Shown here: one piece after another, positions 24,842 through 60,995 of the stretch
Position numbering within the stretch: position 1 is the stretch's first letter
How the letters are laid out: each line of letters starts with the position of its first letter
IMG/VR virus record: IMGVR_UViG_3300031547_000001
DNA: 64,000 nt
DNA from: an uncultured virus (IMG/VR IMGVR_UViG_3300031547_000001)
Taxonomy: Duplodnaviria > Heunggongvirae > Uroviricota > Caudoviricetes
Strand: one strand, 5' to 3'
Translations under genes and position numbers: made by a program
Notes under the pieces: model-generated
What the model was told of the DNA's origin: nothing
The model's input: only the letters and a program-made list of their open reading frames with translations
The model's database searches: none

Positions 24842-24924
24842 TCTCCGAGACGGGACTCGAACCCGCGACTTCCCTCCCTCTGCTGGATGCCAGGGAGATA
24901 GCTCTGCCGCTGAGCTACTCGGAG
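24842..24924 (-). ncRNA. tRNA-like RNA with non-canonical anticodon arm
   Basis: Acceptor stem CUCCGAG/CUCGGAG, U8A9, D arm GCUC-AGCGGCA-GAGC, T arm GCGGG-UUCGAGU-CCCGU; anticodon arm has a 7-bp stem and 12-nt loop; no encoded CCA. Confidence 0.75.
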
Positions 24925-31743: not shown

Positions 31744-32001
31744 TTAGGGGAGGACGACCATGCGCGTCGCTCCCGTGATCGGGTCGACCTGCGAAGCCAC
31801 TGCCTCGCCGATCTGGGGTTCCGGGGACTCCCCCGGCTCCGGGTGCGGCACCACGTTGAGCGTGTACTCCGAGCCCATCGGGATGCCGAGCCTGGCCGCC
31901 TCAGCGACCTGGACGAAGAAGACGCCACCGAGAACGAGGGCGGCTCCAGCGAACGTGTTGATCGCCGTGATGCAGATGTCTCGGAACAGTCCGTGCTTCA
32001 T
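31744..32001 (-). CDS. membrane-anchored hypothetical protein
   Basis: RBS GGAGGGGAG; hydrophobic N-terminus. Confidence 0.6.
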   Translation of the reverse strand: MKHGLFRDICITAINTFAGAALVLGGVFFVQVAEAARLGIPMGSEYTLNVVPHPEPGESPEPQIGEAVASQVDPITGATRMVVLP

Positions 32002-32138
32002 GTCGCTCCCCTCCTCGGGGTGTCTGGCAGGCGGACCCCGCCCCGGGCCGCTACGGGGTCGTAGGGCTGAGACGGGGACCGCCTGAGTACCTTGGCCCAC
32101 CGGACCGGAGATCGGCCCTTAGGGATCATCCTACGGCG

Positions 32139-32738
32139 TTAGCCGTTCAGCTTGCCCCAGCAGATATCGCCAACACCCCGTTCCCGGGTGTGCTGTTGGG
32201 TGAGCGGGGACGAGCACACGCCGCACTGCCCGACCCTCTGGCCGAACAGAGCGAACGCGGCCTTGTGGTCGGCGGCGATCCTCTTGAGGATGCCGTCGTA
32301 CCTGTAGATCCGCTGCTTGCGGAACTCGCCGGGCGCACCGATCAGGGCGTTGACCCAGCGCGGCGTTCCCTCAGCGAGGATCTTGCCCACCTGGTAGAAC
32401 TTGACGTCGCCGTCGTCGGTCTCCAGGGCGTACTTGCCGGGCGGCACCTCGGGGAAGTCCCCGAAGGACACCGGCTCCAGCTTGGACTGCAGGAGCATCA
32501 GGCGGATGAACTCGGCGCACTGGCCAGCGTTCATCTCGTCGATCATCCTGTGGTAGTCACTCGCCTCCATGGCGACGTGGTCGGCCAGGCGAACCCGCTC
32601 ACGAGTCAGGGCCTGCGCCAGGCCACGGCGCCGTTCGCTCGGCGGCATCTCCTTCCAGGAGGGGCGCTCGATGCACGCCTTGACCTCCTTGACCGAGGCG
32701 TGGATGCCTCGGCAGTGGGCGCATCGGATCCTGGCCAT
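32139..32738 (-). CDS. DUF6011-like Zn-finger protein
   Basis: C-terminal CGVC..PLT...RERGVG..C. Confidence 0.6.
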   Translation of the reverse strand: MARIRCAHCRGIHASVKEVKACIERPSWKEMPPSERRRGLAQALTRERVRLADHVAMEASDYHRMIDEMNAGQCAEFIRLMLLQSKLEPVSFGDFPEVPPGKYALETDDGDVKFYQVGKILAEGTPRWVNALIGAPGEFRKQRIYRYDGILKRIAADHKAAFALFGQRVGQCGVCSSPLTQQHTRERGVGDICWGKLNG

Positions 32739-33736
32739 CAGCCCTCCAGGGCGGTGCGCGAGCCGTCGGTGATGTCGCCCGCACGCCGACCCAGATCCGC
32801 GCGCTTGCCCTCGGCGGAGCCCCGGTCGTACGCGCTCCAGTCCATCTTGGGCGCCTTGTACTTGGCCTTGGACTTCTTGCCGTCGTCCTTGCGCTGGGAG
32901 GCGTGCAGACCGTGGAGCATCTCCAGGTCCTCCATCGCCTTCTTGACGCGGTCCTTGCGGCCGACCAGGGCGAGCTCAGCGCCGGATCCTGCCGTGCTGC
33001 GGACCTCCTTGCCGACCTTCTCCAGGTCCCACAGGCGCGTCCGGATCTCGCTGACGAACCCGTCGGCGAACGACCGGCGGAACTTCTTCGGGTCGGCGAT
33101 GGCCACGTACTCCAGGCCGTTGTCGCGGCAGTGACGCTTGGCCGCTCGGATCAGTCGGCCGCCGTCCTTCTTGCCCTGGCCGCGCCCGTCGACCTCCCAG
33201 GGGGTGATCGGCCAGGACTCGGCCAGCGAGCGAACCGGCGCGTTGTACCGCGCCTGCTCCATCATGTGGGCGATGGACTGCCACTTGATCCCGGCCTCGT
33301 GCAGGGTGTAGACGTTCTCGTCGTAGCCCTTGTTCGGGTCGGCCTTGGGGTCGACGCGCTGGAGGAGCTGGAGACGGATGGAGGCGTACATCATCTCCGC
33401 GTAGTCCAGGTCCTTCTCGTAGCCGACCATGTAGCCCTCGCCGGACCAGAAGCCCAGGAACTCGCAGCCGGTGTGGTTGGCCGTGGCGGAGATCAGGGAG
33501 AACAGCTGCTCCAGCAGCGGGCTGAAGCCCTCGGCGAAGGTGATGCGGCGGGTGTCCGGCTTGTCGTCGATGCCCTGGGCCATCTTGGCCTGGGCCAGCA
33601 TCGCCTCGTCGATCTGGTACTTCTTCATGATGCGCTCGGCGGCCTCGCGGTACGTCTGGGCCTCAGCCTCGATGTCGGTCGCCTCGGCCTTGTTCAGCAT
33701 CGCCTGGACGCGCGCCATCAGGTTGTTGTCAGTCAC
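32738..33736 (-). CDS. DUF2786-domain protein
   Basis: RV..ML.KAE.T..EAEA.....AE.IM.KYQID; RRSF..GF. Confidence 0.7.
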   Translation of the reverse strand: MTDNNLMARVQAMLNKAEATDIEAEAQTYREAAERIMKKYQIDEAMLAQAKMAQGIDDKPDTRRITFAEGFSPLLEQLFSLISATANHTGCEFLGFWSGEGYMVGYEKDLDYAEMMYASIRLQLLQRVDPKADPNKGYDENVYTLHEAGIKWQSIAHMMEQARYNAPVRSLAESWPITPWEVDGRGQGKKDGGRLIRAAKRHCRDNGLEYVAIADPKKFRRSFADGFVSEIRTRLWDLEKVGKEVRSTAGSGAELALVGRKDRVKKAMEDLEMLHGLHASQRKDDGKKSKAKYKAPKMDWSAYDRGSAEGKRADLGRRAGDITDGSRTALEG

Positions 33737-33747
33737 GGTTACTCCCT

Positions 33748-33804
33748 GGACTCCTCAGCATGGGTACCTTACCCACGGACACCGCTGGGTGCGGTGTTTC
33801 GTCC
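33748..33804 (-). ncRNA. hammerhead ribozyme type II (HH1)
   Basis: GGAC-GAAA-CACCGC/GCGGUG-UC^-CGUGGG/CCCAUG-CUGAGGA-GUCC; cleavage predicted between 33778 and 33777. Confidence 0.92.
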
Positions 33805-33817
33805 TGGTCGGGATGGA

Positions 33818-33952
33818 TCAGTCGAGCACTACATTCAGCAGGACCGTGAACAGGATCCCTGCTGCGAACCCGGTGCCCACGACGACGAGGAGCAGAAGCC
33901 CGAAGGCTCTTGCGCAACCCTCGCCGTCCGGCTGCTGGAACTTCTCGCTCAC
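33818..33952 (-). CDS. small membrane protein
   Basis: GTGA-coupled; hydrophobic C-terminal half. Confidence 0.5.
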   Translation of the reverse strand: MSEKFQQPDGEGCARAFGLLLLVVVGTGFAAGILFTVLLNVVLD

Positions 33953-34236
33953 TGGAGCGCGTCCCAGAGGGTGCGCGGCGCGTAGGAGCTGTACGGGCTG
34001 GAGCCGGACACGCCGTCCAGAGCGAGCCATACGGCGTTGCGTTCCAGGTCGGCCAGCGGACGCTCCTCGCAGTAGTCGGCGAGCTCCTCTCCGGAGATCG
34101 CGCCGACGACGACGTTCGTGAGCGGGTAGGACGGCTGCACGCCGCAGAGCACCTGGACCTCGGCGGGGTCGATCCCGCTCTCTTCCAGGTCAAGGGCGAT
34201 GGCCGCGAGCTTGTCGAGCAGCTCACCAAGCTTCAT
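33949..34236 (-). CDS. hypothetical protein
   Basis: RBS GGAGG. Confidence 0.65.
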   Translation of the reverse strand: MKLGELLDKLAAIALDLEESGIDPAEVQVLCGVQPSYPLTNVVVGAISGEELADYCEERPLADLERNAVWLALDGVSGSSPYSSYAPRTLWDALQ

Positions 34237-34636
34237 GCTTCCTCCACGATCTCGTCAGCACCCGTGCCTTACGGGCGGACCGCCGTGACTGGCTGCCACG
34301 GGGTTTCGATCTGGCTGTGGATCAGGTACCGGTCAGGCCCTTGATTGCGCTCAGCAGCAGGACACCGGCGATGATGCCGACCATGCAGCAGAGCAGGAAC
34401 TTGCCCATCACTTCCCTCCCACTGCTGCAGCGAAATTGTACAGGAGGATGAACAGAACGGCTCCGGCGAGGATCGCCTTGGGCCAGCTCATGGAAACTCC
34501 TACTGGTTGTTGGGGTCGGTGTCGTGCTGCTCGTGTACCAACGGCGGACCGGCGGGCTGCCCCTGGTTGCTGATGGGCAGGCTGATCATCGGCTGGACGC
34601 CCTGCTCGGGCAGGTCCCTGGGGCAGGCCTCGTCGC

Positions 34637-35092
34637 TCACAGCTCGGTCTCCACGAAGCCCGCACCGTCCAGGGCGGACTGTACCGGGTCATGCCCGAGG
34701 ATCCAGCGCTGCGGCGGGTCGAGCCGGAGGATCCGGCCGTCGATGCGGATCTTCTCGTTCGTGAGGCGCTCCACCTCGAAGCAGAGCCACTCGATGTTGA
34801 GCCACGCCGGGACCGTCGCGCTGCTGTGCGTGAATATCGAGGAGACGGCCGCGTGCACGAACGGGTCGGTGGCCACATCGGCCAGGGCCGGACCCAGGCC
34901 CAGCTCCTCGTTGCGCGGGTTGGACCGCTTGTTGTCGAGGTACCAGGACATGTCGTCGTCCGCCATCGACTTGAGCCGCTGCACCTCGTGTGCGCGCTCC
35001 GTGGCCTCGGGGCCGGTGAACAGCGCCACGAGTTCGGCGTCGTCGCACCCCTCGGTCGCCTTGTACAGGAGGACGACCTTCTCTTGATCCAT
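34637..35092 (-). CDS. hypothetical protein
   Basis: RBS AAGGAG just after HH2. Confidence 0.7.
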   Translation of the reverse strand: MDQEKVVLLYKATEGCDDAELVALFTGPEATERAHEVQRLKSMADDDMSWYLDNKRSNPRNEELGLGPALADVATDPFVHAAVSSIFTHSSATVPAWLNIEWLCFEVERLTNEKIRIDGRILRLDPPQRWILGHDPVQSALDGAGFVETEL

Positions 35093-35104
35093 TTGTACTC
35101 CTTG

Positions 35105-35157
35105 AGAGCTCCTCAGCACCGGCTCTTACCGGCGGACACCCGAAGGTGTTTCGCTCT
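35105..35157 (-). ncRNA. hammerhead ribozyme type II (HH2)
   Basis: AGAGC-GAAA-CACC-UUCG-GGUG-UC^-CGCCGG/CCGGUG-CUGAGGA-GCUCU; cleavage 35135/35134. Confidence 0.93.
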
Positions 35158-35221
35158 TGTGGACAGCGCCCCGGGAGGTTGGGGTGGTCGTCCTCCCCCG
35201 GGGCGCTGCCGTCTGTGGGTG

Positions 35222-35722
35222 TTACTTGACCGGCTCGGCGCCAACCGTCCGGCGGGAGCGACGGGCTCGGGGCTTGGGCGCCTCCTCGACCTTCGGCTCC
35301 TCAGCGGCCTGCTCGGTGACCTCCGCCTTGACCTCGACCTCGGCGGCGACGGGCGCCTCTTCGGTCTTGGCCTCGTCCTCGGCGGGCTTGTCCTCCGCCT
35401 TGGGCTCCTCGGTGGCCGGAGCCGCCTCGGTGACGACCGCGCTGCTCAGCTTGGCCAGCTCCTTCTCCAGAGCCGCCTTGCGCTTGGCGACACGCTCGGC
35501 CTCCTTGGCAGCCGCCGCGTCCTTCTTCGCCTTGAGGGCGGCCTGGTTGTCGTCGCTCGCCTGGAAGTCCATGCGGAAGGCGACGGCCAGCTGGACCGTC
35601 TTGAGGTCCGCCTCGACCCCGGTCTGCTCCAGGATCCACTTGGCGAAGCGCTCGTGCAGCTCCGTGGGGGCGGAGGCAGCGCGCTCGGCGAAGGACTTCT
35701 TCTTGCTGTTGTTGTCGGTCAT
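35222..35722 (-). CDS. PTELH-family protein, paralogue 2
   Basis: Shared N-terminal motif; RBS AAGGAG after HH3. Confidence 0.8.
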   Translation of the reverse strand: MTDNNSKKKSFAERAASAPTELHERFAKWILEQTGVEADLKTVQLAVAFRMDFQASDDNQAALKAKKDAAAAKEAERVAKRKAALEKELAKLSSAVVTEAAPATEEPKAEDKPAEDEAKTEEAPVAAEVEVKAEVTEQAAEEPKVEEAPKPRARRSRRTVGAEPVK

Positions 35723-35735
35723 GACTTGCTCCTTG

Positions 35736-35806
35736 GGACTCCTCAGCACCGGCGCTCTACCGGCGGACCATCGGGGCGGCCTTGCGACCGCCCCTAGGTT
35801 TCGTCC
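35736..35806 (-). ncRNA. hammerhead ribozyme type II (HH3)
   Basis: GGAC-GAAA-CC..GGGGCGGUC-GCAA-GGCCGCCCC..GG-UC^-CGCCGG/CCGGUG-CUGAGGA-GUCC; cleavage 35766/35765. Confidence 0.92.
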
Positions 35807-35858
35807 TGTCTATGTTGTCGTGCTTCTCACGCACCCGCCGGGACCTACCGGCTGCTTG

Positions 35859-36062
35859 TGCGAGGCGCGTCAGGCAGTCGATTACCTGAGCTTCGGGTTT
35901 TGTGGAGGACCCGTTCCTGTCTCCAAGGCTGCATTTGCTGCTACCGACCTCTTGCCTGGCCGCCCTGCTCGGTGCTCGCGGTCTCCGGCTCGGAAGCTTC
36001 GTCTCAACCTCGTACTCGGCGCTGCGGCCGTTCCGGGGAGTCGCTTCCTGCCCTCTCGCTTA
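35859..36062 (-). ncRNA. structured leader RNA, copy B (homologous to 39099-39303)
   Basis: Collinear conserved blocks shared with copy A; 5' GCGAG can pair with 3' CUCGC; lies between a promoter and HH3. Confidence 0.6.
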
Positions 36063-36099
36063 CGAGTAGAACTATGCCCCATATCGGCGCCGGAGGCAA
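36057..36099 (-). promoter_or_regulatory. phage promoter copy
   Basis: TTGCCT-17 bp-CATAGT-TCTACTCGTAAGCG. Confidence 0.75.
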
Positions 36100-36105
36100 C
36101 CCCTC

Positions 36106-36196
36106 GTCTACCTGCGCATTCATCACGTTTGCCCTGGTAGGAGGCTCGCGAAGTTTCTCCATCTTTTTTGGAGAAGTTTCAAATGCGCAGGTAGAC
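36106..36196. repeat. 15-bp inverted repeat plus third half-site upstream of promoter
   Basis: GTCTACCTGCGCATT (36106-36120) / AATGCGCAGGTAGAC (36182-36196); TTTGCCCTGGTAGG lies between them. Confidence 0.75.
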
Positions 36197-36255
36197 CTGA
36201 GTGCGACGCGTCTACGGCGATTCACCGTGGGCCAGGGCGAATCGGGCGAAACACC

Positions 36256-36621
36256 CTAGAGAGGCAGGAGCTTCCACAGGTTGCCGTTGGGCGTGCGCAC
36301 CACATCCTGGCCGTCGTTGGTCTTGCCGACCATCTCGATCAGCAGGGTGTCGGCCTTCCTCGGCGCCTCGGGAACGGGCACGACCTCGACCGCCTTGGCC
36401 TTGCGGGCCCCGGGGATGTTGCCGACCTCCCACGTGTTGCCACGATTGACGACCTTGATGTAGTTACCCAGGGACGTCTTCTCCAGGGTCCGACGCATGG
36501 CGTAGCGGACCTGCTCGCCGGTCAGGCCGGTTGCGGCCACGATCTCGGTTGCCGTCACCACCTCGTTCGCGCGGGTCTTCAGGTAGGCAATGACGTCGTT
36601 GGAGATGTTCTGTGCGGGCAC
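36256..36621 (-). CDS. winged-helix DNA-binding protein (putative)
   Basis: VIAYLK...VTATEIVAATGLTGEQVRYAMRR; RBS AAGGAG after HH4. Confidence 0.6.
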   Translation of the reverse strand: MPAQNISNDVIAYLKTRANEVVTATEIVAATGLTGEQVRYAMRRTLEKTSLGNYIKVVNRGNTWEVGNIPGARKAKAVEVVPVPEAPRKADTLLIEMVGKTNDGQDVVRTPNGNLWKLLPL

Positions 36622-36639
36622 TGTTACTCCTTGTTGATT

Positions 36640-36708
36640 GAGCTCCTCAGCACGGGCCATTACCCGTGGACACCGTGGCGGCTGTCGGGCCACCCCGGTG
36701 TTTCGCTC
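36640..36708 (-). ncRNA. hammerhead ribozyme type II (HH4)
   Basis: GAGC-GAAA-CACCG...CGGUG-UC^-CACGGG/CCCGUG-CUGAGGA-GCUC; begins immediately after the upstream stop codon; cleavage 36669/36668. Confidence 0.92.
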
Positions 36709-36945
36709 TCATCGCTCGTTGGTGTCGATCTGCACCGTCACGGGAACGTTGAACCTGGACGGGTGCGAGCCGTCGTTGTCGTCTTCCATCCAGGCCACGT
36801 CTGCGAGTTGCAGGAAGTCAACGAACCGGGCGGCCATCAGCATGTTGGGGAACGTGAAGCTCCTGATGCCGAGAGTGTTGAACCCCAGCTCGCCGTTGAA
36901 CGCCGTCACGGAGTCCAGCATCCGCGAGATCTGACTCTCGTTCAC
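36709..36945 (-). CDS. hypothetical protein
   Basis: RBS GAGGAGGA; stop abuts HH4. Confidence 0.6.
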   Translation of the reverse strand: MNESQISRMLDSVTAFNGELGFNTLGIRSFTFPNMLMAARFVDFLQLADVAWMEDDNDGSHPSRFNVPVTVQIDTNER

Positions 36946-37267
36946 GTCTCTCGTCCTCCTCGCTGTTGCGCTCCCGGTACATCCGGAAGGCTCGGCGCAG
37001 CGTACCCGGCAGGACGCCGTAGGAGCGCGCTAGGGCGGCCTGCGAGCCGTTGCCGGTCCCGGCGGCCAGCCACTCCGCGTAGAGCTCCTCTACGGGCTTA
37101 GGGAGCTTCACGTATCGGTGCGCGGTGCCTGTGATCCGGCGTACCCGCTTGCGCACCTGGGACTCGTTGCAGCCATACACGGCGGCCGTGCGGGTGTTGT
37201 CGTTCCCGCACAGCGCGCGCATGGCCATGAGTTCCGCATCCGACTCGGGCAGGATGCGAGCCGTCAT
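36818..37267 (-). CDS. double helix-turn-helix protein (putative)
   Basis: TRTAAVYGCNESQVRKRV and QAALARSYGVLPGTLRRAF; 3' end overlaps the next gene. Confidence 0.55.
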   Translation of the reverse strand: MTARILPESDAELMAMRALCGNDNTRTAAVYGCNESQVRKRVRRITGTAHRYVKLPKPVEELYAEWLAAGTGNGSQAALARSYGVLPGTLRRAFRMYRERNSEEDERRERESDLADAGLRDGVQRRAGVQHSRHQELHVPQHADGRPVR

Positions 37268-37348
37268 GTCAGTGGTCCTTTCCGCCTGTCGTCCCGCTGC
37301 CGCCGTTGTCCTGTCCGTCGTTGGTCTTGCCGTGCTCGTCGCCGCCCA

Positions 37349-37507
37349 TCAGTACGCCTCTCCGTACAGGTCGGTGGCGTCCGCGTCCGGCGGCTGCACC
37401 TGCTCGGTGGGCGTGTGGCCTCGGGTCTCCGCCTGCACGATCGACAGAGCCTCGTTGGGTCCGGCGGGCTCGTGGGTCACGTTGTGGCCACGGGGTACGT
37501 CAGGCAT
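37349..37507 (-). CDS. small hypothetical protein
   Basis: RBS GAGGAG; MPDVPRGHNV... Confidence 0.5.
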   Translation of the reverse strand: MPDVPRGHNVTHEPAGPNEALSIVQAETRGHTPTEQVQPPDADATDLYGEAY

Positions 37508-37748
37508 TGGTCTCCTCGCTGATGTCGAACTGGATGACGACGGGCTTGTCGAACGCGACCTGGCTCACGCCGTTCTCGTCGCTCCGGATCCGGGCGACCT
37601 TACGGAGCCCCGACAGGAGGATGTAGTCGGACGCGCACAGCAGGTCCTCGAACTCGACGTCCATCATGTAGCCATCGTCGCCCAGGATCTTGCCACCGAA
37701 GTGGACGCAGTTGCGCTCCACCGTCGCCTTGATGCTGGCACCGCTCAT
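37500..37748 (-). CDS. hypothetical protein
   Basis: RBS AAGGAG after HH5. Confidence 0.65.
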   Translation of the reverse strand: MSGASIKATVERNCVHFGGKILGDDGYMMDVEFEDLLCASDYILLSGLRKVARIRSDENGVSQVAFDKPVVIQFDISEETNA

Positions 37749-37762
37749 AGCTCTCCTTCTCG

Positions 37763-37827
37763 GGACTCCTCAGCACAGCCTCTTAGCTGCGGACCATCGG
37801 GCCCTTGGAGGGCCCTAGGTTTCGTCC
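37763..37827 (-). ncRNA. hammerhead ribozyme type II (HH5)
   Basis: GGAC-GAAA-CC..GGGCCC/GGGCCC..GG-UC^-CGCAGC/GCUGUG-CUGAGGA-GUCC; cleavage 37792/37791. Confidence 0.92.
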
Positions 37828-37835
37828 TTACGGCC

Positions 37836-38468
37836 TTACGCGCCGAACTCAGCCCGGCGCATGACCGACTTGATGCCGTGGCTCTTGACGAGCTCCGTCG
37901 CCCGCTGGAAGCACGCCTCCTCGTCGAGCGGGTCGATGACCTCCAGGCGCTCCGTGTCGACCGTGGCCGGGTAGCGGAAGCCCTCCATGTTGTCGACCTT
38001 GAACACGCCCACCTTGCCGTAGCGGTTGAAGTCGGAGGGCTTGATCGCCTCGATGACGCCCTCGCACCCGACGTACCGGCCCTTGGTCGTCTTGGACTTG
38101 ACGCGCTTCCCGTAGGAGGGCGTGCTCCACTCGCGGATGTACTGCTCGGTCAGGTTGGCGATCATGATCGCCTCAGCCGCCGCGATGACCTCGGGGGTTG
38201 CGTCGATGGCGCAGTGGTTGTGGTAGGTCCAGCCACGAGTCGTCGCGTACTGGACGACCTTGACCTTGCCCTCTTCCTTGTCGAGGACGATCGCCATGAA
38301 GTCGCTGTCGTCGTACATGTTGCGCTCGAAGGTGTCGATGACGCAGTCGACATAGGTGACCTCGTGGGCCTGCTCGACGTGCGCCTGGAACAGGCCGTTC
38401 TGCTCGCTGTACGAGTTGGGGTTGTAGCCCTCCGGCAGGTTGGGGTTGATGCACGTGATGATGGGCAC
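37836..38468 (-). CDS. hypothetical protein
   Basis: GTG after AGGAGG; GC3-biased codons. Confidence 0.7.
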   Translation of the reverse strand: MPIITCINPNLPEGYNPNSYSEQNGLFQAHVEQAHEVTYVDCVIDTFERNMYDDSDFMAIVLDKEEGKVKVVQYATTRGWTYHNHCAIDATPEVIAAAEAIMIANLTEQYIREWSTPSYGKRVKSKTTKGRYVGCEGVIEAIKPSDFNRYGKVGVFKVDNMEGFRYPATVDTERLEVIDPLDEEACFQRATELVKSHGIKSVMRRAEFGA

Positions 38469-38481
38469 GGGATCCTCCTGG

Positions 38482-38548
38482 GGACTCTTCAGCAGCGCCT
38501 CTGTAGCGCCGGACCGTCGCCCCGGTTGCCCGGGGCTAGGTTTCGTCC
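38482..38548 (-). ncRNA. hammerhead ribozyme type II (HH6)
   Basis: GGAC-GAAA-CC..GCCCCGG-GCAA-CCGGGGC..GG-UC^-CGGCGC/GCGCUG-CUGAAGA-GUCC; cleavage 38512/38511. Confidence 0.92.
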
Positions 38549-38551
38549 TGG

Positions 38552-38794
38552 TTACTTCTCCATGCTCTGGCCGATGAGGCACCAGGCGCACTCTTCGGAG
38601 AGCTCGGGGAACTCCCGCTTGATCTGCACGAAGAGCTTCTGCGCCTCCGCGTCCTGCTCCGCCCATGCCGGCATGCAGCCGGGCAGCGGGATGGGCTGGC
38701 CCAGCGAGAGGGCCATCGCGTCGAAGTCGGCCGCCAGCATCAGCGTCGCGTCGTCGGCGGGCTTGTCGGTGATGACCTGGGCTACCGCGTACAT
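38552..38794 (-). CDS. hypothetical protein
   Basis: RBS AGGAGG after HH7; stop 3 nt before HH6. Confidence 0.65.
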   Translation of the reverse strand: MYAVAQVITDKPADDATLMLAADFDAMALSLGQPIPLPGCMPAWAEQDAEAQKLFVQIKREFPELSEECAWCLIGQSMEK

Positions 38795-38805
38795 GCTTCC
38801 TCCTG

Positions 38806-38879
38806 GAGCTCCTCAGCAGCGCCGTTCAGCGCCGGACGGCCGGAGCCCCGCTGGCTGCGGGGCCCGGACCGTTTCGCTC
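38806..38879 (-). ncRNA. hammerhead ribozyme type II (HH7)
   Basis: GAGC-GAAA-CGG..GCCCCGC/GCGGGGC..CCG-UC^-CGGCGC/GCGCUG-CUGAGGA-GCUC; cleavage 38835/38834. Confidence 0.92.
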
Positions 38880-39010
38880 TACTGCTTCGGCGGGTTCGCG
38901 ACCTCGACTACAGCCGCGTCCTCGCCCCACCCGGCCTGTGCGGCGGGCAGATCAGCCGGAAGCTGGATGACCTCGGCGTCGTTCCCGAGGTGCTGCTCGT
39001 TCTCGGCCAT
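38879..39010 (-). CDS. 43-aa acidic peptide
   Basis: MAENEQHLGNDAEVIQLP...; RBS AAGGAG; exactly fills the gap between HH8 and HH7. Confidence 0.6.
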   Translation of the reverse strand: MAENEQHLGNDAEVIQLPADLPAAQAGWGEDAAVVEVANPPKQ

Positions 39011-39022
39011 GTTCTCTCCTTG

Positions 39023-39088
39023 AGACTCTTCAGGACCGCCGTTCAGCGGCCGACCCTCGGGGCTTGTGCAGCCCCTCGGGTTTCGTCT
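39023..39088 (-). ncRNA. hammerhead ribozyme type II (HH8)
   Basis: AGAC-GAAA-CCC..GGGGCU/AGCCCC..GGG-UC^-GGCCGC/GCGGUC-CUGAAGA-GUCU; cleavage 39052/39051. Confidence 0.92.
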
Positions 39089-39098
39089 TAGTTGGTTT

Positions 39099-39303
39099 CG
39101 CGAGGCGCCTTGCCCCGCGCTTCGGCGTTACCGCCTACCGGTTTTGTGGAGGTCCGGTGCCTGTCTAGAGTCAGCGGCCCTTGCGGGGCGCGATCGCAGC
39201 CGTCTCTCTTGGCTGTCCTACCGGGGCTCGCGGTCTTCGGGCGGATCCTCGACCGTCGGCTGGAGTCGCCGTCCCGGGAGTTCCTGTCCTGCCCTCTCGC
39301 TTA
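39099..39303 (-). ncRNA. structured leader RNA, copy A (homologous to 35859-36062)
   Basis: Collinear conserved blocks; lies between a promoter and HH8. Confidence 0.6.
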
Positions 39304-39341
39304 CAGGTAGAACTTTACTCCATGTCGACAGAAACGCAAAA
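39298..39341 (-). promoter_or_regulatory. phage promoter copy
   Basis: TTGCGT...TAAAGT-TCTACCTGTAAGCG. Confidence 0.7.
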
Positions 39342-39346
39342 CAGCT

Positions 39347-39433
39347 CCTACCTGGTCAAACGCGCGTTTGCCCTGGTAGGGGGCTTGCAAAGTTTCTTGA
39401 AGTTTTTTCCGGAAGTGCGAATGCCCTGGTAGG
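39347..39433. repeat. upstream module with three GC(C/G)C(T/A)GGTAG-type half-sites
   Basis: CCTACCTGGTCAAA, TTTGCCCTGGTAGG and AATGCCCTGGTAGG; same layout as 36106-36196. Confidence 0.7.
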
Positions 39434-39598
39434 CGGCTTGCGGCCCTACGCGCTCGCGTAAGGGGCTAGGGAGCGCCCGATGGGCCAGGGGCCCGGACTG
39501 CCGGCATGCGGCCGTTACGCGGCCACGTAGCCCGGCGCACGACCCCGGAACGCAGGACAGCCCCGGCTGGTAGGCCGGGGCTGTCGGAGCGGGGCTGG

Positions 39599-40225
39599 TC
39601 AGTCGTTCAGGCGACCGGCGCAGGGCAGGGTGTTGTAGGCCATGTAGTTCTCCTTGACCGAGTCCTCGCCGAACTCCTCCGGGGAGTAGATGTGGGCGGT
39701 GATCTCGGTGTGGGAGTGAGCCATCAGGGTCTCCTTGGAGTAGCCCTGCTTGCGGGTCTTCTTCTTGAGGTCGGCGCACCCGAAGGCGTGGACCTCGGGC
39801 TCGCCCATCCCGCCGTAGACGAGGGTCAGCTTGACCGGGGTCGTGTCGATCTCCTGCTCGGCGACAGCGGCCTTGACCTCGGCCTCGTCGTCGCTGAGGG
39901 CCTGGTCGGCCTCGGAGTCGTACTCCTCGGTCGCCGCGACCTTGCCGGTCAGCTTGGCGAGCTCGGCCTCCAGCTTGGCCTTCTTGCGGGCCGCGCTGGC
40001 CTTCTTGGTGGCGGCTGCAGCGGCCTTCTTGGCGGCCAGGACGGCCTGGTTCTCGGGGGAGGCCTGGAAGTCCATCCGGAAGATCACGGCGAGCTGGACG
40101 GTCTTGAGGTCGGGCTTGATGCCGGTCTCGGCCTCGATCCACTCGGCGAAGTGGCGGTGGAGCTCGGTCGGCTCGACAGCTGCGCGCTCGGCGATGGTCT
40201 TCGCGGTGGCGGTGGTCTTGTTCAT
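39599..40225 (-). CDS. PTELH-family protein, paralogue 3
   Basis: Shared N-terminal motif; extra C-terminal H...C..L domain; RBS GAGGAG. Confidence 0.8.
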   Translation of the reverse strand: MNKTTATAKTIAERAAVEPTELHRHFAEWIEAETGIKPDLKTVQLAVIFRMDFQASPENQAVLAAKKAAAAATKKASAARKKAKLEAELAKLTGKVAATEEYDSEADQALSDDEAEVKAAVAEQEIDTTPVKLTLVYGGMGEPEVHAFGCADLKKKTRKQGYSKETLMAHSHTEITAHIYSPEEFGEDSVKENYMAYNTLPCAGRLND

Positions 40226-40324
40226 CGTGATCTCCTCGGTGGTGTTCCCTCTTGCTTACAGAGAGAACTCTACGCCAGTCCAGTCCAGTTGGCTACCTCC
40301 AACCGCGACTTTCTTGAAGATTCT

Positions 40325-40597
40325 TTACGCGATGCCGAGGAGGTCGGCCCACGCCTCCAGCTCGACGTCCGTCATCCAGTTGATCCGCTGCTGGTCGAAG
40401 GGCGACACGGCCACCTCGGCCAGGAGGCCCATCCGGATCTGCGCCTGGCGGCTGCGGGGACCGGCCGTGAGGGCGACGGCGTCGCGCAGGAGCTCCGTGT
40501 GACCGAGCAGCGCACCGCCCTTGTCGAAGGCCGAGTAGGACCGGTTGCCGCCGATGACGTAGCCCTTGGCGTACTCGCGACGCTTGAACATCTGCAC
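40325..40597 (-). CDS. early hypothetical protein
   Basis: Own promoter; RBS AGGGAG. Confidence 0.65.
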   Translation of the reverse strand: MQMFKRREYAKGYVIGGNRSYSAFDKGGALLGHTELLRDAVALTAGPRSRQAQIRMGLLAEVAVSPFDQQRINWMTDVELEAWADLLGIA

Positions 40598-40680
40598 TCC
40601 CTGGTGTTGGTCTCGCTTACAAGAAGAACTCTACTCCATTCGGGGTGGAGGCGCTACCCTCCACCCCGACCTATTTCGGA

Positions 40681-40947
40681 TCAGGCGAGCGGGGCCAGCA
40701 GCTCGGCCCAGTCCTCCAGCTCGATGGCGCCCATCTCGTTGACCTTGGCGACCTCCATCGGGGTCTCGAGGGCGAACTCCCGGATCAGCGCCCGGCGGAT
40801 CGCACCCTCGTAGGTGCCGACCTCGTCGGCGTCCTCGGCGCGGTCCCAGTCGTTGGTCCGGACCTGCAGCGCGCCATCGGCGGTGAAGACCGAGTAGCAG
40901 CCGAGGTTCGAGGTGATGAAGCCGTTGGTGGTGTCGATGCGGGCCAT
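40681..40947 (-). CDS. early hypothetical protein
   Basis: Own promoter; RBS GAGGAGG. Confidence 0.7.
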   Translation of the reverse strand: MARIDTTNGFITSNLGCYSVFTADGALQVRTNDWDRAEDADEVGTYEGAIRRALIREFALETPMEVAKVNEMGAIELEDWAELLAPLA

Positions 40948-41071
40948 GGAGTCCTCCTCGTTGGTGTTCCTGCCGTCCTTACAAGAAGAACTCTACCCTG
41001 TGGAGGTGCAGAAGGCAAGCAATTGCAGTGACCAATTCTTTGGGGGCGTAGGCGCCCGACTGCAGGCCACG

Positions 41072-51229: not shown

Positions 51230-51591
51230 TGAAGATCTGCACAGGTTGTGTATTCCACGATGGCAAGTCGATGTCTGGTGCGCAGTGGTGCTACTGCTGC
51301 GCGCTGGGCCACGGTAATGGAGAAGACATGGCAGTGATCGCGTACGACCCGACGATCCACGGCGAGGACGACGTGCGTCGCAACCGGCTGAGGGAATGGC
51401 TGGAGGCGAATGGCCTCGACACGCGGTTCATCTCGGTGAACGGCACGATCCGAGTGGAGGGTTCACACATCCACTTCCTGGGCTATGTCCTGGACAAGGA
51501 CGGCGTCAAGGTGCACGGGGACAAGGGTCCTCTGATGGCGGGCATGTCGGCCCGTCTCAAGGTCGAGTGGACGGAGCCGGACAATGGCTGA
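51229..51591 (+). CDS. hypothetical protein
   Basis: TGATG-coupled; an alternative start at 51328 is possible. Confidence 0.55.
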   Translation: MKICTGCVFHDGKSMSGAQWCYCCALGHGNGEDMAVIAYDPTIHGEDDVRRNRLREWLEANGLDTRFISVNGTIRVEGSHIHFLGYVLDKDGVKVHGDKGPLMAGMSARLKVEWTEPDNG

Positions 51592-52048
51592 GCTGGGTGT
51601 GACGGTGTCGGCGGCAGTTGAGCTGGAGGTTGGTGAGCGAACCCGAGCCTGGCTGATCTCCATGGGCTGGACGCCGCCTCAGGAGGAAGGCGCGGTCGAG
51701 ACGCGAAAGGTTGTGGACCGGCTCGGCTCTCAGGGCGCAGCGATGGACAGGACCGCTGCCAAGGCTCGCCGCATCGCCCGGTTCTACAGGCAGGCCATGG
51801 ACACCAGGACGCGTGGAGCGATCGACATGCTCCTGCTGGAGCTGGGTGTGGAGATCAAGGAGCTGGACTCCGGCAAGAACGAGGGCTGGTCCTGGCTCGC
51901 TTCCGAGGCCCGCCACTCCAAGGCCAAGCAGCTGTACGACTCGCTGACCGAAGGGTCGCAGGCCGCCAAGGACGACCTGAACGAACTCCTGGACCTCGTG
52001 GGCATCGACCTGGGCGAGTTCCTCCGGCCGACGGTCATCAAGCGGTGA
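51584..52048 (+). CDS. hypothetical protein
   Basis: Coupled ORF. Confidence 0.65.
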   Translation: MAELGVTVSAAVELEVGERTRAWLISMGWTPPQEEGAVETRKVVDRLGSQGAAMDRTAAKARRIARFYRQAMDTRTRGAIDMLLLELGVEIKELDSGKNEGWSWLASEARHSKAKQLYDSLTEGSQAAKDDLNELLDLVGIDLGEFLRPTVIKR

Positions 52049-52320
52049 CGACACAAGAAGACCTCGATCAGGCGCACCGGGAACTCGAGAGGGCAATCGA
52101 GAACCTGTCGCGCCTGATCGGTGCCGAAGGGGTTATCTCGGAATGGACCGCTGTGGTGTCCTTCCAGTCCTTCGGCGCTAATCGAGGAGAAGGCACCACA
52201 CAGATCATCCGCCTGTTCCCTGACGACGTGCCATATCACAGGAGCATGGGGCTCCTGGATTACGCGCTCACCAGGATGCGCCACAACATCGGAAGGCTCG
52301 ACAATGACGATGACGATTGA
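52045..52320 (+). CDS. hypothetical protein
   Basis: GTGA-coupled. Confidence 0.6.
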   Translation: MTTQEDLDQAHRELERAIENLSRLIGAEGVISEWTAVVSFQSFGANRGEGTTQIIRLFPDDVPYHRSMGLLDYALTRMRHNIGRLDNDDDD

Positions 52321-53890
52321 CGGCTATCTCCAGGAGGTGGCTGATACCTACACCGATGGCAATCGACAGGCGATGTCCTTCCTGCTGGGGACGGAATCCG
52401 GCCGACGCCATCTCACCAAGGATGAGCCGCTCCTGTTCGCCTTGACCTACATGGCCAACTCCCTCAAGATGCCCGCTCCCATCGCTGAGGCGGAAGGCGC
52501 GCAGTCTGAGGAGGGCGTCATCTCGATGTGTGAGTTCCACTGGGAGCTCTGCGAGAAGGCGCGTGACTGGAGCGAGAAGCCTGCCAGCCAGTACGGACCG
52601 GCCGAAGCGCGCGACGCCTACATCGCTCCGCGTGACGCGGGCAAGTCCACCTGGCTGTTCAAGATTCTGCCCCTTTGGGCGGCTGCACACGGACACGCCA
52701 AGTTCATTGCGGCCTTCGCCGACTCGGGGCCCCAGGCCAAGAAGCACCTGTCCTCCTTCAAGCGCGAACTGGAGACCAACGCACTTCTGCAGGCAGACTA
52801 TCCCTTGCTGTGCCAGCCCATGAAGAGGCGCGGCAACGTCACGGTGTCCGACACCCAGGAGATGTACCAGGCGCAGAGCGGCTTCGTGTTCGCCGCAACT
52901 GGAGCGGACACCTCAGTCCTGGGTATGAAGGTCGAGGACCAGCGACCCGACCTCATCATCCTCGACGACCTGGAGCCCGACGAGTCCAGCTACTCCGCGT
53001 ACCAGGCAGGCCAGCGACTCAACACCCTGACGGACGCCATCCTGCCCCTGAACATCCGGGCGCGAGTTGTCCTGTCTGGAACCGTCACCATGCCCGGCTC
53101 GATCACGCACCAGCTCGTCAAGACCGTCCTGAACAAGGACGAGGAACCGGCCGAGTGGATCGTCACCGAGAAGTTCAAGGTGCACCACTTCAAGCCGATC
53201 CTCCAGAACGAGGACGGCACTGAGCGCAGCATGTGGCCGGAGAAGTGGCCCATGTCCTGGCTGGAGACCGTGCGCCACACCCGATCGTTCGCCAAGAACT
53301 ACAACAACGACCCCATGGCGATGGACGGCCAGTACTGGACGCGCGACGACTTCACATACGGCTCGCTGCCTTGCGCCAAGACCGTGCTGTCCATAGATGG
53401 CGCCGTGACCAACAAGGGCGGTAGCGACTTCACTGCGCTGGCCGTCGTTGGCGCCACGGGACACCCTGCTGGACATCCCGATCGTAAGTGCGAGGTCAAG
53501 TACGGCGTGGCCGTCAAGCTGTTGGGCGCAGCGCTGCGGAAGAAGGTCCTGGACATTCTCGAGATGTACCCCGAGATCAGCCTGATCCTGATCGAGGGAA
53601 ACCAGGGCGGAGAGCTCTGGCGAGAAGTCCTGCATAACATGCCTGTGCGCATTTCCATATTCAGCAATTCGGAACCCAAGGAGGTTCGGGCCGGTCGAGT
53701 GCACGCGCTCTATCAGCGCATCCCGACGCGGGTCGTTCACACCGCCCGGCTTCAGGCCGTCGAGGAGAACATGGTGGGCTTCCCCAAGCTCAAGCACGAC
53801 GACCTCGTGGACGCCGTGGGCAATCCCATCCTGAAGTTCCTCAAGCCGAAGCAAGCGCAAAGGCGGAGCGCTCGATCAGTGGGATACTGA
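52304..53890 (+). CDS. terminase large subunit
   Basis: APRDAGKST Walker A, RPDLIILDDLE, SGT, SIDGA, SDFTA, HDDLVDA. Confidence 0.9.
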   Translation: MTMTIDGYLQEVADTYTDGNRQAMSFLLGTESGRRHLTKDEPLLFALTYMANSLKMPAPIAEAEGAQSEEGVISMCEFHWELCEKARDWSEKPASQYGPAEARDAYIAPRDAGKSTWLFKILPLWAAAHGHAKFIAAFADSGPQAKKHLSSFKRELETNALLQADYPLLCQPMKRRGNVTVSDTQEMYQAQSGFVFAATGADTSVLGMKVEDQRPDLIILDDLEPDESSYSAYQAGQRLNTLTDAILPLNIRARVVLSGTVTMPGSITHQLVKTVLNKDEEPAEWIVTEKFKVHHFKPILQNEDGTERSMWPEKWPMSWLETVRHTRSFAKNYNNDPMAMDGQYWTRDDFTYGSLPCAKTVLSIDGAVTNKGGSDFTALAVVGATGHPAGHPDRKCEVKYGVAVKLLGAALRKKVLDILEMYPEISLILIEGNQGGELWREVLHNMPVRISIFSNSEPKEVRAGRVHALYQRIPTRVVHTARLQAVEENMVGFPKLKHDDLVDAVGNPILKFLKPKQAQRRSARSVGY

Positions 53891-53944
53891 GGGCTAAAGT
53901 AGACTGTGCGCGAACGCGCAATTGACCAGCCTCAGGAGTTAGCA

Positions 53945-55507
53945 ATGCCCAATCTCGCTCTCCTGCGGAAGTCCCTCGTGGAACTGGACAAGGCCAAGCC
54001 TGCCTACATCGAGGCTGGTCAGTTCTACGACGGGACGTTCGCAGAGCCGTTCCAGTCGCTCATGATGCAGCGCATGCTCATCCTGGCGAACCCCAACTAC
54101 AAGATGGTCCTCAGCGCCGTGCCGGTTGACGCCGTCGTGGAGAAGCTGGAGATCGTCGACGTTCAGGCGTCAACCCCTGAGGGCACCGAGGTCCTTCAGG
54201 ACGACATCTGGAAGCCGAACAACCTTCGGCTGGAGCACAAGCCCGCCATCCTCGCTGCCGAGAAGTACGGCGACGCCTACCTGTTCGTGTGGCCCGAGGA
54301 CACCGAGTACGAGGTGGTCGAGTCCGACAACGAGGACGTCGCTGCCGAGGAGGCTGCTGACGAGGTAGAGGTCGAGACCTCCATCTCGATCACGTACCAG
54401 TCGCCCTTCAAGGTGCGTGTGTTCTACGACGAGGCCAACCCGCGCAAGAAGACGCACGCCGTCAAGCGGCTCAAGACCGGCAAGGGCAAGCAGGAGTGCG
54501 CCTGGCTGTACTACGCCGACGGCCGCATCGAGAAGTACGAGACTCCCGTCAACAAGTGCACCATCGACGCGTTCTACTACGTCGAGGACGTCGAGAACGA
54601 GATGGACGAGATCCCCTTCGTCCACCTGCGCAACGACTTCCCGTATGGTCGGCCCCTGCACGAGAAGGCGTACGGCCCGCAGAACGCGCTGACCAAGCTC
54701 ACGGTCAACCAGCTCAGCGGCTCCGACTTCGACGCGTTCCCGCAGCGCTGGGCTCTGGCCAAGACCAAGGGCCTGACCGGCGGAGACGACATCGACTGGG
54801 ATGGCGACGACAGCACCGTGCCGGACAAGGAGGGCAACACCCTGTCGACGCTCACCAGCGGACCCGGGCGCATCTGGGACCTGTCGGGCTTCGACTCGGT
54901 GGGGCAGTTCTCCACGGGTGACGTCGGCCAGTTCCTGGAGCCGATGGACTACTACGTCAAGCTGATGGCTAGCGCCACGGGTACGCCGCTCCACTACTTC
55001 ACCTCGGACACCTCGGGTGGTGGAACGCCCACGGGCGAGTCGATCCGCCAGCGTGACGCGCGCCTGAACACCAAGGCGGAGTGGCACCAGAAGACTCTGA
55101 GCAACGGCTTCGAGGAAGCCCTGCTCATGGGCATGGATTACCTGGGCTACGAGGACGAGTCGGTCAGCATCAAGTGGAAGCCGATCGAGTACGTCACCGA
55201 GGAGGAGAAGCTCGCCCTCGTCGAGAAGAAGGTCGCCATCGGCATCCCGCTCGCCGTGGCCCTGGCTGAGGCCGGGTACGACGAGGACACCGTCCGCCAG
55301 TGGACCACCGGACAGCCCAACGAGGACGAGCTCACGGCCCGAATCGCGATGCTGGCTCAGATGGGTGACGCGCTCCAGAAGATCGGTACCGCCGCCACCC
55401 TGGGCATCGACATGACCGACGTCAACGAGATCGTCAAGGCGCTGCTGGGCAAGTTCCAGGGGCTCAACGACCAGGACGACGCGGAAGAGGAAGAGCAGGA
55501 GGCGTAA
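53945..55507 (+). CDS. portal protein (SPP1 gp6-like)
   Basis: Follows the terminase; V..V.EKL, YGDAYL.VW, IPFVHL.N, FPQRW, TGES motifs. Confidence 0.85.
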   Translation: MPNLALLRKSLVELDKAKPAYIEAGQFYDGTFAEPFQSLMMQRMLILANPNYKMVLSAVPVDAVVEKLEIVDVQASTPEGTEVLQDDIWKPNNLRLEHKPAILAAEKYGDAYLFVWPEDTEYEVVESDNEDVAAEEAADEVEVETSISITYQSPFKVRVFYDEANPRKKTHAVKRLKTGKGKQECAWLYYADGRIEKYETPVNKCTIDAFYYVEDVENEMDEIPFVHLRNDFPYGRPLHEKAYGPQNALTKLTVNQLSGSDFDAFPQRWALAKTKGLTGGDDIDWDGDDSTVPDKEGNTLSTLTSGPGRIWDLSGFDSVGQFSTGDVGQFLEPMDYYVKLMASATGTPLHYFTSDTSGGGTPTGESIRQRDARLNTKAEWHQKTLSNGFEEALLMGMDYLGYEDESVSIKWKPIEYVTEEEKLALVEKKVAIGIPLAVALAEAGYDEDTVRQWTTGQPNEDELTARIAMLAQMGDALQKIGTAATLGIDMTDVNEIVKALLGKFQGLNDQDDAEEEEQEA

Positions 55508-55510
55508 CAG

Positions 55511-56566: not shown

Positions 56567-56581
56567 CAAGGAGATACGCGT

Positions 56582-57433: not shown

Positions 57434-57448
57434 CACGAGGAGCAGGAC

Positions 57449-57709: not shown

Positions 57710-57839
57710 TATCCCGCAATGGGGTATCATCTCCTTAGCGTCCGGTCGCTTGGCCGTGCGGAATGGCTCTGGTGGGTACCAGAAATGGGGTCCATCGGGG
57801 CCATTTGCATTTGACAATCTACGACAGAAGGAGTGGAGA

Positions 57840-58916: not shown

Positions 58917-58929
58917 GGCGCGGCCCTAC

Positions 58930-59007: not shown

Positions 59008-59037
59008 TAGCCCGCATTACGACCCGAGGAGGGCGGC

Positions 59038-60591: not shown

Positions 60592-60649
60592 GCCTATGCC
60601 ATCTCGGTGTACCGGTAGAGTTCATCCCAGTAAGGAAAGGTAGAACGAC

Positions 60650-60994: not shown

Positions 60995-60995
60995 C

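Follow-up and report, generated by a model that had tools for sequence, protein, structure and literature searches.

Nine predicted type II hammerhead ribozymes lie directly before Shine–Dalgarno sequences among small genes of a Yara-like Streptomyces phage

The locus

The nine predicted hammerhead ribozymes described here (HH1–HH9) lie on the minus strand of an uncultured virus genome fragment, IMG/VR record IMGVR_UViG_3300031547_000001. The stretch analyzed, 64,000 nucleotides (nt) long, is referred to as the window. Its source is a Yara-like Streptomyces siphophage. The best match of the region is Streptomyces phage Yara, at ~81% identity across 77% of 7 kb, and weaker matches are other Streptomyces phages of ~69 kb. 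On the minus strand, running from ~49 kb to 9 kb, a D5-like primase–helicase gene is followed by many small genes with no assigned function and then by a replication and nucleotide module that encodes a dCMP deaminase, an SNF2 helicase, a PD-(D/E)XK nuclease, DNA polymerase III alpha, HU, and ThyX. The hammerheads sit among the small genes, in the spacers between one coding sequence and the next or at the end of a noncoding leader.

Nine type II hammerheads

Both strands of the window were searched with a type II hammerhead core pattern (CGAAAC..GTC..CTGANGAG). Its nine matches are confined to 33751–39085 of the minus strand, and 100 dinucleotide shuffles give an expectation of 0.00 (Table 1). 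The preliminary description of this DNA counted eight ribozymes, then numbered HH1–HH8. It had overlooked the copy at 34248–34311, and the eight cut-to-start distances it gave (41, 42, 43, 47, 43, 43, 40, and 41 nt) are all exact on recomputation. The elements follow in the same order in every copy: the 5′ strand of stem II, GAAA, the stem III hairpin, GUC, the stem I hairpin, CUGANGA, and the 3′ strand of stem II. This is the type II topology, in which stems I and III are closed by loops and stem II is open. The core CUGANGA ... GAAA ... GUC, with all the invariant hammerhead bases, is found in 9/9 window copies, and the core sequence is CUGAGGAG in six, CUGAAGAG in two, and CUGACGAG in one.

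Table 1. Predicted ribozymes, leaders, and promoter-like sites of the window. The second number of each predicted cut is the predicted first base of the 3′ product; the 5′ untranslated region (UTR) is counted from the base after GUC to the start codon preceded by a Shine–Dalgarno (SD) sequence; R1 is a covariance model described in the text; aa, amino acids
Feature	Position	Strand	Predicted cut	Downstream gene	Start codon	5′ UTR (nt)	Remarks
HH1	33748–33804	minus	33778/33777	32738–33736 (332 aa, DUF2786)	GTG at 33736	41	R1 65.1 bits; Rfam Hammerhead_II 26.9 bits (below threshold)
HH2	34248–34311	minus	34278/34277	33949–34236 (95 aa)	ATG at 34236	41	core CUGACGA; R1 73.2 bits; Rfam Hammerhead_II 22.6 bits
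HH3	35106–35156	minus	35135/35134	34637–35092 (151 aa)	ATG at 35092	42	
HH4	35736–35806	minus	35766/35765	35222–35722 (166 aa)	ATG at 35722	43	ends ~300-nt promoter leader; R1 82.6 bits
HH5	36640–36708	minus	36669/36668	36256–36621 (121 aa)	GTG at 36621	47	
HH6	37763–37827	minus	37792/37791	37500–37748 (82 aa)	ATG at 37748	43	
HH7	38482–38548	minus	38512/38511	37836–38468 (210 aa)	GTG at 38468	43	core CUGAAGA
HH8	38806–38879	minus	38835/38834	38552–38794 (80 aa)	ATG at 38794	40	
HH9	39023–39088	minus	39052/39051	38879–39010 (43 aa)	ATG at 39010	41	core CUGAAGA; ends ~250-nt promoter leader; R1 78.4 bits
Conserved noncoding leader	35767–36064	minus					predicted release by HH4, with stem III hairpin at 3′ end; hairpin 35894–35913, loop UCCUCCACAAAA
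Second leader copy	39053–39305	minus					predicted release by HH9; hairpin 39138–39157, loop ACCUCCACAAAA
Promoter-like site	36071–36099	minus					−35 TTGCCT, 17-nt spacer, −10 CATAGT; heads leader ending in HH4; kept in relatives
Promoter-like site	39312–39340	minus					−10 TAAAGT; heads leader ending in HH9
Promoter-like −10 elements	44095, 43164, 41912, 41487, 40995, 40633, 39317, 36076, 28827	minus					nine copies of one motif

A covariance model, R1, was built from the nine window copies and searched against 123 kb made up of the window and four named relatives. Its strong matches (E ≤ 1.3e-12) number 38 and always fall on the strand of the genes: nine in the window, eight in Yara, seven in Dryad, six in Wentworth, and eight in Lizz. 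One weak match (E 0.54) was kept in a 39-row pairing alignment and is excluded from the later counts of 38. In that alignment, which was fitted to R1 and so favors pairing, 465 of 465 cells of the 12 modeled pairs hold standard pairs, and 8 of the 12 pairs have changes on both sides; in slid controls, with the partner moved 1–3 columns, 27–46% are paired. The G10.1–C11.1 pair is invariant. The Yara orthologue of HH1 carries compensatory changes in stems I and III, and that of HH3 has exchanged an A–U for a G–C pair in stem III.

All 38 copies have a stem I of 18–19 nt; the core measures 7 nt, and stem II comprises 4–5 base pairs (bp). Stem III spans 14–37 nt with folding energies of −5.6 to −32.6 kcal/mol, and its interiors pair in single-sequence folds too. 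The full core is present in 35 of the 38 copies; three have U4C and two have GUA. The U4C copies (CCGA for CUGA) are leader-ending hammerheads of Dryad, Wentworth, and Lizz (L151:5676–5765, L152:5678–5763, and L153:8742–8827) in which the ribozyme is otherwise intact, and they may be slow or conditional variants. Three positions beyond the core never vary, namely the A immediately 5′ of stem II, the U at the start of loop I, and U2.2. The first two could form a non-Watson–Crick contact. Loops with GGY match an RCC 5′ of stem II over 3–4 bp in all ten copies that have such loops, two of them in the window, and a UGG in the loop matches a CCA just 3′ of stem II in 7 of 12 UGGAUG loops, none of which are in the window.

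Judged from their sequences, the nine motifs are very probably genuine type II hammerhead ribozymes with predicted catalysis, and the pattern of conservation supports the view that the layout was selected as a ribozyme. At its gathering score of 37 bits, the Rfam family Hammerhead_II (RF02276) reports none of the nine window copies. The gathering threshold is a property of one model and not a structural criterion. Because standard Rfam annotation misses all nine, hammerheads of this sort are probably under-counted in actinophage genomes. Pieces of the region occur in soil metatranscriptomes (four runs, each with 8–12% of the region's words) as contigs of 83–266 nt at a depth of 2–6, many of them identical to the window. 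Over 32000–41000, none of the 32 pieces listed, out of 71, crosses a predicted cut site, but contigs this short and shallow are incapable of showing RNA ends.

Start codons and the distance from the cut

An AGGAG, GGAGG, or GGGAG sequence lies 3–11 nt before each start, and in the window this SD begins 1–8 nt after stem II. Across the five phages, 34 of the 38 copies have an SD that begins 1–3 nt past stem II, and the distance from the cut to the SD-preceded start is 40–47 nt in every copy. For 27 of 29 ribozymes in the four named phages, the start annotated by the depositors lies 41–46 nt from the predicted cut. The other two cases are a Yara gene called across its ribozyme and a Dryad gene begun at a GTG within stem I, and both have an SD-preceded start at the expected position. 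PHROG profiles align from residues 1–5 of four window proteins. Longer in-frame open reading frames (ORFs) called mechanically start within ribozymes or overlap the preceding gene; the one that extends the gene behind HH7 to 38666 would cross the ribozyme and overlap the upstream gene. Starts upstream of or inside the ribozymes had been named as one outcome that would tell against the preliminary description. Annotation, SD positions, and PHROG alignments agree in placing them downstream.

Since position 1.1 of stem I pairs with position 2.1, every 3′ product begins flush with an 18–19-nt hairpin. The order first proposed for the product, with the stem I hairpin at its 5′ end followed by the core, the stem II strand, and the SD, is the layout in all nine copies. 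The accompanying proposal of a standardized 40–47-nt 5′ UTR holds for the spacing, which recurs in 38/38 copies from five phages, but its constancy is largely geometric. The fold itself fixes 29–30 nt of the distance (18–19 nt in stem I, 7 nt in the core, and 4 nt in stem II); the remaining 11–18 nt are the SD and its spacer. The real regularity is the closeness of the SD to stem II.

On the upstream side, the stop codon lies −1 to 13 nt from stem II in six of the nine window copies. Stem II of HH5 begins immediately 3′ of the UGA stop of gene 36709–36945, and that of HH8 overlaps the upstream gene's UAG stop by 1 nt. At HH3 the upstream stop is 65 nt away, and the gap holds a strong hairpin; a gap of 59–67 nt with a hairpin is kept at this junction in all five phages. 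The hairpin (35161–35211, minus) follows the stop of gene 35222–35722 and is long and GC-rich, with no U tract. It could be a 3′ stabilizer or terminator for the upstream gene.

Hammerheads at homologous genes and in unrelated viruses

Comparison of the five phages reveals three gene families that have a hammerhead in every phage despite divergence of the stems. Presence varies at other junctions. HH6 is absent from the corresponding junction in Yara, where the homologous gene follows the previous gene with a 1-nt gap, and a mosaic boundary falls exactly at the stop codon before HH6. In one paralogous family the genes have either a hammerhead (UTR of 43–45 nt) or a promoter of their own whose −10 element ends 41 nt before the start. 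Two paralogues in the window, gene 35222–35722 behind a hammerhead and the longer gene 39599–40225 with its own promoter, share a 217-nt repeat at 73% identity, and the family has ten members in the five phages. The hammerhead and the promoter thus appear, from their positions, to be alternative ways of setting an RNA 5′ end near the SD. Wentworth gene 90 was considered as a promoter-driven homologue of the gene behind HH7 and rejected; the proteins are unrelated (E = 0.13).

The core pattern was also scanned against IMG/VR, where it gave at least 132 stretches; 91 nonredundant viral type II hammerheads passed the stem checks. Among the matches listed, an SD-preceded ORF start lies 35–70 nt after the cut in 72 of the 91 (median 54), compared with 7 of 89 in an opposite-strand control. 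For the 87 unrelated copies with enough flank, again among the matches listed, the upstream stop lies a median of 2 nt before the ribozyme (interquartile range 0–8) and the start a median of 25 nt after it (interquartile range 20–31). A G at N7 (CUGAGGAG) is found in 17 of the 38 Yara-like copies and in one of these 87. It was considered as a selected SD mimic and rejected, as it varies between orthologues (G in HH3 of the window, C in Yara). Many of the unrelated copies (e.g., L073, L057, L123, L125, and L127) have CGUCAG or CAUCAG just after stem II, the reverse complement of their own CUGACG or CUGAUG core, and their cleaved product could, by sequence, refold into a hairpin that hides the core. 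Core-complementary bases 3′ of stem II were not seen in the Yara-like family.

Leaders and transcription units

A promoter-like motif occurs nine times on the minus strand and consists of a −35 element (TTGCCT or TAGCCA), a 17-nt spacer, and a −10 element (TAGAGT, CATAGT, or TAAAGT) followed by TCTACTCGTAAG. An SD and start codon lie within ~30–40 nt after most copies, and together the copies form a series of small single-gene cassettes ~360–500 nt apart. Two of the motifs head long leaders that end in HH9 and HH4, and this arrangement suggests two early minus-strand transcription units with predicted promoters near 39.3 kb and 36.1 kb. Downstream of both leader promoters lie ~18 genes. Nine are preceded by hammerheads, and the others have overlapping or near-abutting stops and starts. 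A scan for E. coli-type promoters and terminators found no promoters and one terminator-like site, which borders HH7 but is on the wrong strand; the E. coli model is uninformative for Streptomyces.

The leader between the promoter-like site and the hammerhead is ~250–430 nt long and occurs in two copies per genome in the window and its relatives (L001, L151, L152, and L153). Nine copies from the five phages were aligned and folded with alifold. The leader hairpin covaries (CGGG/CCCG versus CCGG/CCGG), and its conserved 12-nt loop, (A/U)CCUCCACAAAA, resembles the 16S rRNA anti-SD. The leader at 35767–36064 has no Rfam match at E ≤ 10 and no ORF of ≥60 codons that passes a filter on GC content at third codon positions (GC3). 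Two partners for the loop were considered and rejected. Pairing with the downstream SD has a summed pair probability of ≤0.04 in 8/8 full-length folds, and pairing with the ribozyme core appears in only two of the eight folds, with no consistent interaction.

Several smaller features surround these units. A 25-nt repeat, GCCCTGGTAGG.GGCT.GC, occurs at 36125–36149, 39364–39388, and 39417–39441 (plus-strand coordinates), with related inverted CAGGTAGAC elements; it is found only just upstream of the two long-leader promoters. By sequence it looks like an operator site, and the candidate regulator is possibly a helix-turn-helix-like protein encoded at 36818–37267. Very small ORFs of 26–46 codons lie between the hammerhead-preceded genes (33818–33952, 34322–34410, 34407–34493, 34500–34640, and 37271–37348). 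Three of them are strongly hydrophobic, and the run is joined by overlapping or near-abutting stops and starts (GTGA, TGATG, and TGAcATG). A tRNA match of 42.5 bits lies inside the replication module at 24842–24924 (minus), with a stretch of 28 nt where the model expects 17. Structural genes on the plus strand (portal, scaffold, capsid, and tail tube, with lysin and baseplate-like genes) occupy 1–9000 and 51500–64000. As they run across the window ends, the sequence is permuted with respect to the record of Yara.

A proposed role in making defined mRNAs

The best explanation, and in our judgment a probable one, is that nine hammerheads punctuate two early units and self-cleave to yield defined mRNAs; cleavage in vivo and effects on half-life and translation are what we infer from the layout. 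Each ribozyme would fill the spacer from a stop codon, or from a leader of ~250–300 nt, to the next SD. Cotranscriptional self-cleavage after GUC would split the polycistronic RNA into messages of one to three genes, and at HH4 and HH9 it would also detach the conserved leader RNA. The downstream piece would start with a 5′-OH on a flush stem I hairpin of 6–8 bp, followed by 11 freed bases (core and stem II strand), the SD 1–8 nt further on, and the start codon 40–47 nt from the new end. On the upstream piece, the stem III hairpin would form the 3′ end and carry a 2′,3′-cyclic phosphate. The benefit would most likely be host-independent, defined, and hairpin-protected mRNA ends that uncouple the stability and translation of neighboring small early genes.

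Folding models fit both ends of this scheme. In thermodynamic folding, the first base of the product is paired with a median probability of 0.79, and the stem I hairpin alone has −7.6 to −11.1 kcal/mol, as would suit 5′-end protection. The length and stability of stem III go beyond catalytic need, which fits a 3′-protective role for the upstream piece, with stem III as the modeled protective hairpin of the upstream message. A different use of the cut ends, the formation of gene-length RNA circles through hammerhead ligation, was considered and rejected; stem II strands are compatible in only one of seven neighboring pairs within the units (HH7 to HH6). No RNA end-healing or ligation enzymes (RtcB, kinase, or 2H phosphoesterase) were found among the 77 ORFs scanned against Pfam.

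Several observations weigh against this proposal. Even at E ≤ 10, Rfam Hammerhead_II lists five of the nine copies, at 22.6–26.9 bits, and leaves the other four unlisted. A Watson–Crick contact of loop I is obvious in two of the nine window copies and missing in seven, and with a stem II that is short (4–5 bp) and open, activity is therefore not guaranteed. The leader-ending hammerheads of three relatives carry the U4C core change. In 6 of the 14 hammerhead-bearing families with at least two members, some homologues have no hammerhead but an overlap, a spacer of ≤44 nt, a wider gap, or a promoter of their own. As these homologues do without the hammerhead, the ribozyme is not required for expression, which suggests, by comparison of sequences, that it modulates rather than enables it. 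Stop and start are both snug in the unrelated viral hammerheads, so a tight fit is a general phage rule, of which the Yara-like family is the tight end, and the constancy of the UTR is largely a matter of geometry and compaction. The fate of the downstream piece also matters, and Streptomyces has an RNase J. In Bacillus subtilis, RNase J1 degrades the 5′-OH fragment that self-cleavage of glmS leaves (PMC3328962). Cleavage in the phage could therefore destabilize the downstream message. The earlier proposal that cleavage slows decay of the product accordingly divides: the flush 5′ hairpin speaks for it, but the 5′-OH does not serve as a general stabilizer.

Alternative explanations

The constant 40–47 nt could be a by-product of ribozymes that merely cut between genes, perhaps chiefly for the sake of the upstream 3′ hairpin, with the spacing given by geometry and a compact genome. 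We regard this as rather doubtful, although much agrees with it. Stem I, core, and stem II account for 29–30 nt, and the rest is the SD and a 3–11-nt spacer. The upstream stop is equally tight, at −1 to 13 nt in 6/9 window copies, and in the 87 unrelated viral copies, among the matches listed, the medians are 2 nt before and 25 nt after the ribozyme. No universal standard length is evident across phages, where the cut-to-start distance ranges over 35–70 nt with a median of 54 (among the matches listed), and stem III is often much longer than catalysis requires. What argues for more than a by-product is that the downstream side stays constant in the five phages (38/38) while the upstream side runs from −1 to ~790 nt. 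The presence of HH6 together with its gene in the window, and its absence in Yara, are a further hint that the downstream unit includes the ribozyme.

Three further readings were considered. Cleavage might open the ribosome-binding site (RBS), if an uncut ribozyme hinders the 30S subunit at the SD and the 4-bp helix II falls apart after the cut to turn translation on. The nearness of the SD to stem II (1–3 nt in 34/38) agrees with this, and in some eukaryotic RNA viruses a 5′ UTR ribozyme reportedly must cut itself before translation can initiate. The predicted accessibility of the SD averages 0.46 when the folded ribozyme is imposed and 0.57 after cleavage. This shift, which the preliminary description had suggested as one possible effect of the cut, falls short of significance (p = 0.067 by Wilcoxon test, with 21 up and 12 down; the folding omits steric effects), the SD lies outside the helices in both states, and homologous genes are expressed without a ribozyme, so that we consider this reading unlikely. 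We find it harder still to favor cleavage as negative control, in which the 5′-OH would mark the downstream mRNA for 5′-to-3′ decay by RNase J and limit early gene expression. The fate of the glmS product and the RNase J of Streptomyces would suit it, and the U4C variants of the relatives, taken as slow, could tune the rate; the 5′ nucleotide is, however, paired in a stable hairpin, a classic obstacle to 5′-end-dependent decay, nine constitutive destabilizers before strong SDs would be wasteful, and no ligand-sensing domain is present. Least probable of all, and in our view very improbable, is that each hammerhead with its SD is a linker cassette, selfish or recombinogenic, and that such cassettes spread between junctions and promote mosaic exchange with little benefit for expression. 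Their presence is polymorphic at homologous genes of close relatives, all copies share the three noncore bases named above, and the mosaic boundary falls at the stop before HH6. Yet the shared sequence, the core and a few bases, is short and poor for homologous recombination, the stems covary to keep the catalytic fold over long divergence, and no transposition mechanism is known.

The proposal that the hammerheads make defined mRNAs can also be put in a broader form, which we offer only tentatively. The phage type II hammerhead with its adjoining SD would then be a selected module, a general host-independent "post-transcriptional promoter." Stem I would form a cap-like 5′ hairpin just outside the ribosome footprint, stem III would seal the preceding message, and cleavage would measurably raise and insulate expression of the genes on either side. 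The tightest known case would be that of the Yara-like phages (40–47 nt, 38/38), with the module alternating with a promoter and short leader in one paralogous family.

Relation to known ribozyme systems

The arrangement of intergenic hammerheads in phages has been known since 2011, and the idea of processing is that of Perreault et al. 2011 (PMC3088659). In the prophages described there, multiple hammerheads flank single genes or short blocks, and processing into operon- or gene-length mRNAs was proposed. Three tandem arrangements were tested, and cleavage of clustered hammerheads was shown during in vitro transcription. Those clusters likewise place several hammerheads, including type II, between small and mostly unnamed phage genes on one transcript. 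The present series differs in having nine copies within 5.3 kb, in belonging to an actinophage, in falling below the Rfam threshold, and in that most window copies are without the canonical pseudoknot between loop I and the 3′ tail. The 40–47-nt spacing found in five Yara-like phages is a further difference from that work, in the available parts of which no spacing rule is described.

The same paper covers HHphage, from the haloviruses HF1/HF2. This ribozyme heads an early polycistronic transcript, 13 nt ahead of a start codon, and the mapped 5′ end of the transcript is ≤3 nt from the cut (in PMC3088659). It is like the window copies in its place a few bases before a start codon and in its early polycistronic transcript. 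It differs as a single variant-core, high-salt-dependent ribozyme of an archaeal virus rather than an intergenic series. In Desulfovibrio vulgaris, three type II hammerheads beside phage-like or hypothetical genes cleave in vivo, as found by cyPhyRNA-seq (PMC8782182). They show directly that ribozymes of this type are active inside cells. The topology and the kind of gene neighbors are shared with the phage series; the D. vulgaris copies are three and dispersed in a bacterial chromosome, and the available parts of that paper mention no distance to start codons.

RiboJ combines the hammerhead of satellite tobacco ringspot virus (sTRSV) with a 23-nt hairpin and raises transcript ~2-fold and protein 2–10-fold, possibly through the terminal hairpin (Clifton et al. 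2018, PMC6206723). As in RiboJ, a hammerhead stands here between upstream RNA and the RBS, and its predicted cleavage gives the same hairpin-bearing 5′ end; HH4 and HH9, between a promoter leader and the RBS, show the likeness best. In RiboJ, an added hairpin separates the ribozyme from the RBS and keeps the RBS exposed, whereas here there is none, only 1–8 nt from stem II to the SD. The sole retained hairpin of the window copies is stem I at the extreme 5′ end, and seven of the nine copies come after a coding sequence, not a promoter. The preliminary description had called the series a natural RiboJ-like insulator. The layout bears this out in 9/9 window copies and 38/38 overall, with HH4 and HH9 in exactly the RiboJ position; the opening of the RBS finds no support, and the spacing is mostly a matter of architecture and compaction.

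Other comparisons concern the ends that are made. Phage T7 early genes have RNase III sites, intergenic hairpins at which the polycistronic transcript is cut into mRNAs with stabilizing hairpin ends. A host enzyme makes that cut, whereas here the RNA would cut itself. As predicted for the window copies, the glmS ribozyme cuts itself within the 5′ UTR of a bacterial message, and the coding fragment then begins with a 5′-OH (PMC3328962). It is ligand dependent, and the 5′ end of its product is accessible; the window copies have their 5′ end in a predicted hairpin and no sensor domain.

Significance for phage gene expression

Searches of the available literature, limited to main texts, turned up no study of hammerheads in Streptomyces phages and no stated rule for their spacing to the SD or start codon. 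Reviews repeat the processing proposal and call the role of bacterial and phage hammerheads open. The Yara-like phages offer a clean test bed for this question, with 38 ribozymes at a fixed geometry to the SD. Their homologous genes come as natural variants with a ribozyme, a promoter, or simple coupling, and the hosts are cultivable. If catalysis takes place without an effect on the flanking messages, the arrangement would be a further example of the 2011 observation. If catalysis stabilizes or insulates them, a widespread class of ribozymes would gain a function, and the RiboJ design would already exist in nature.

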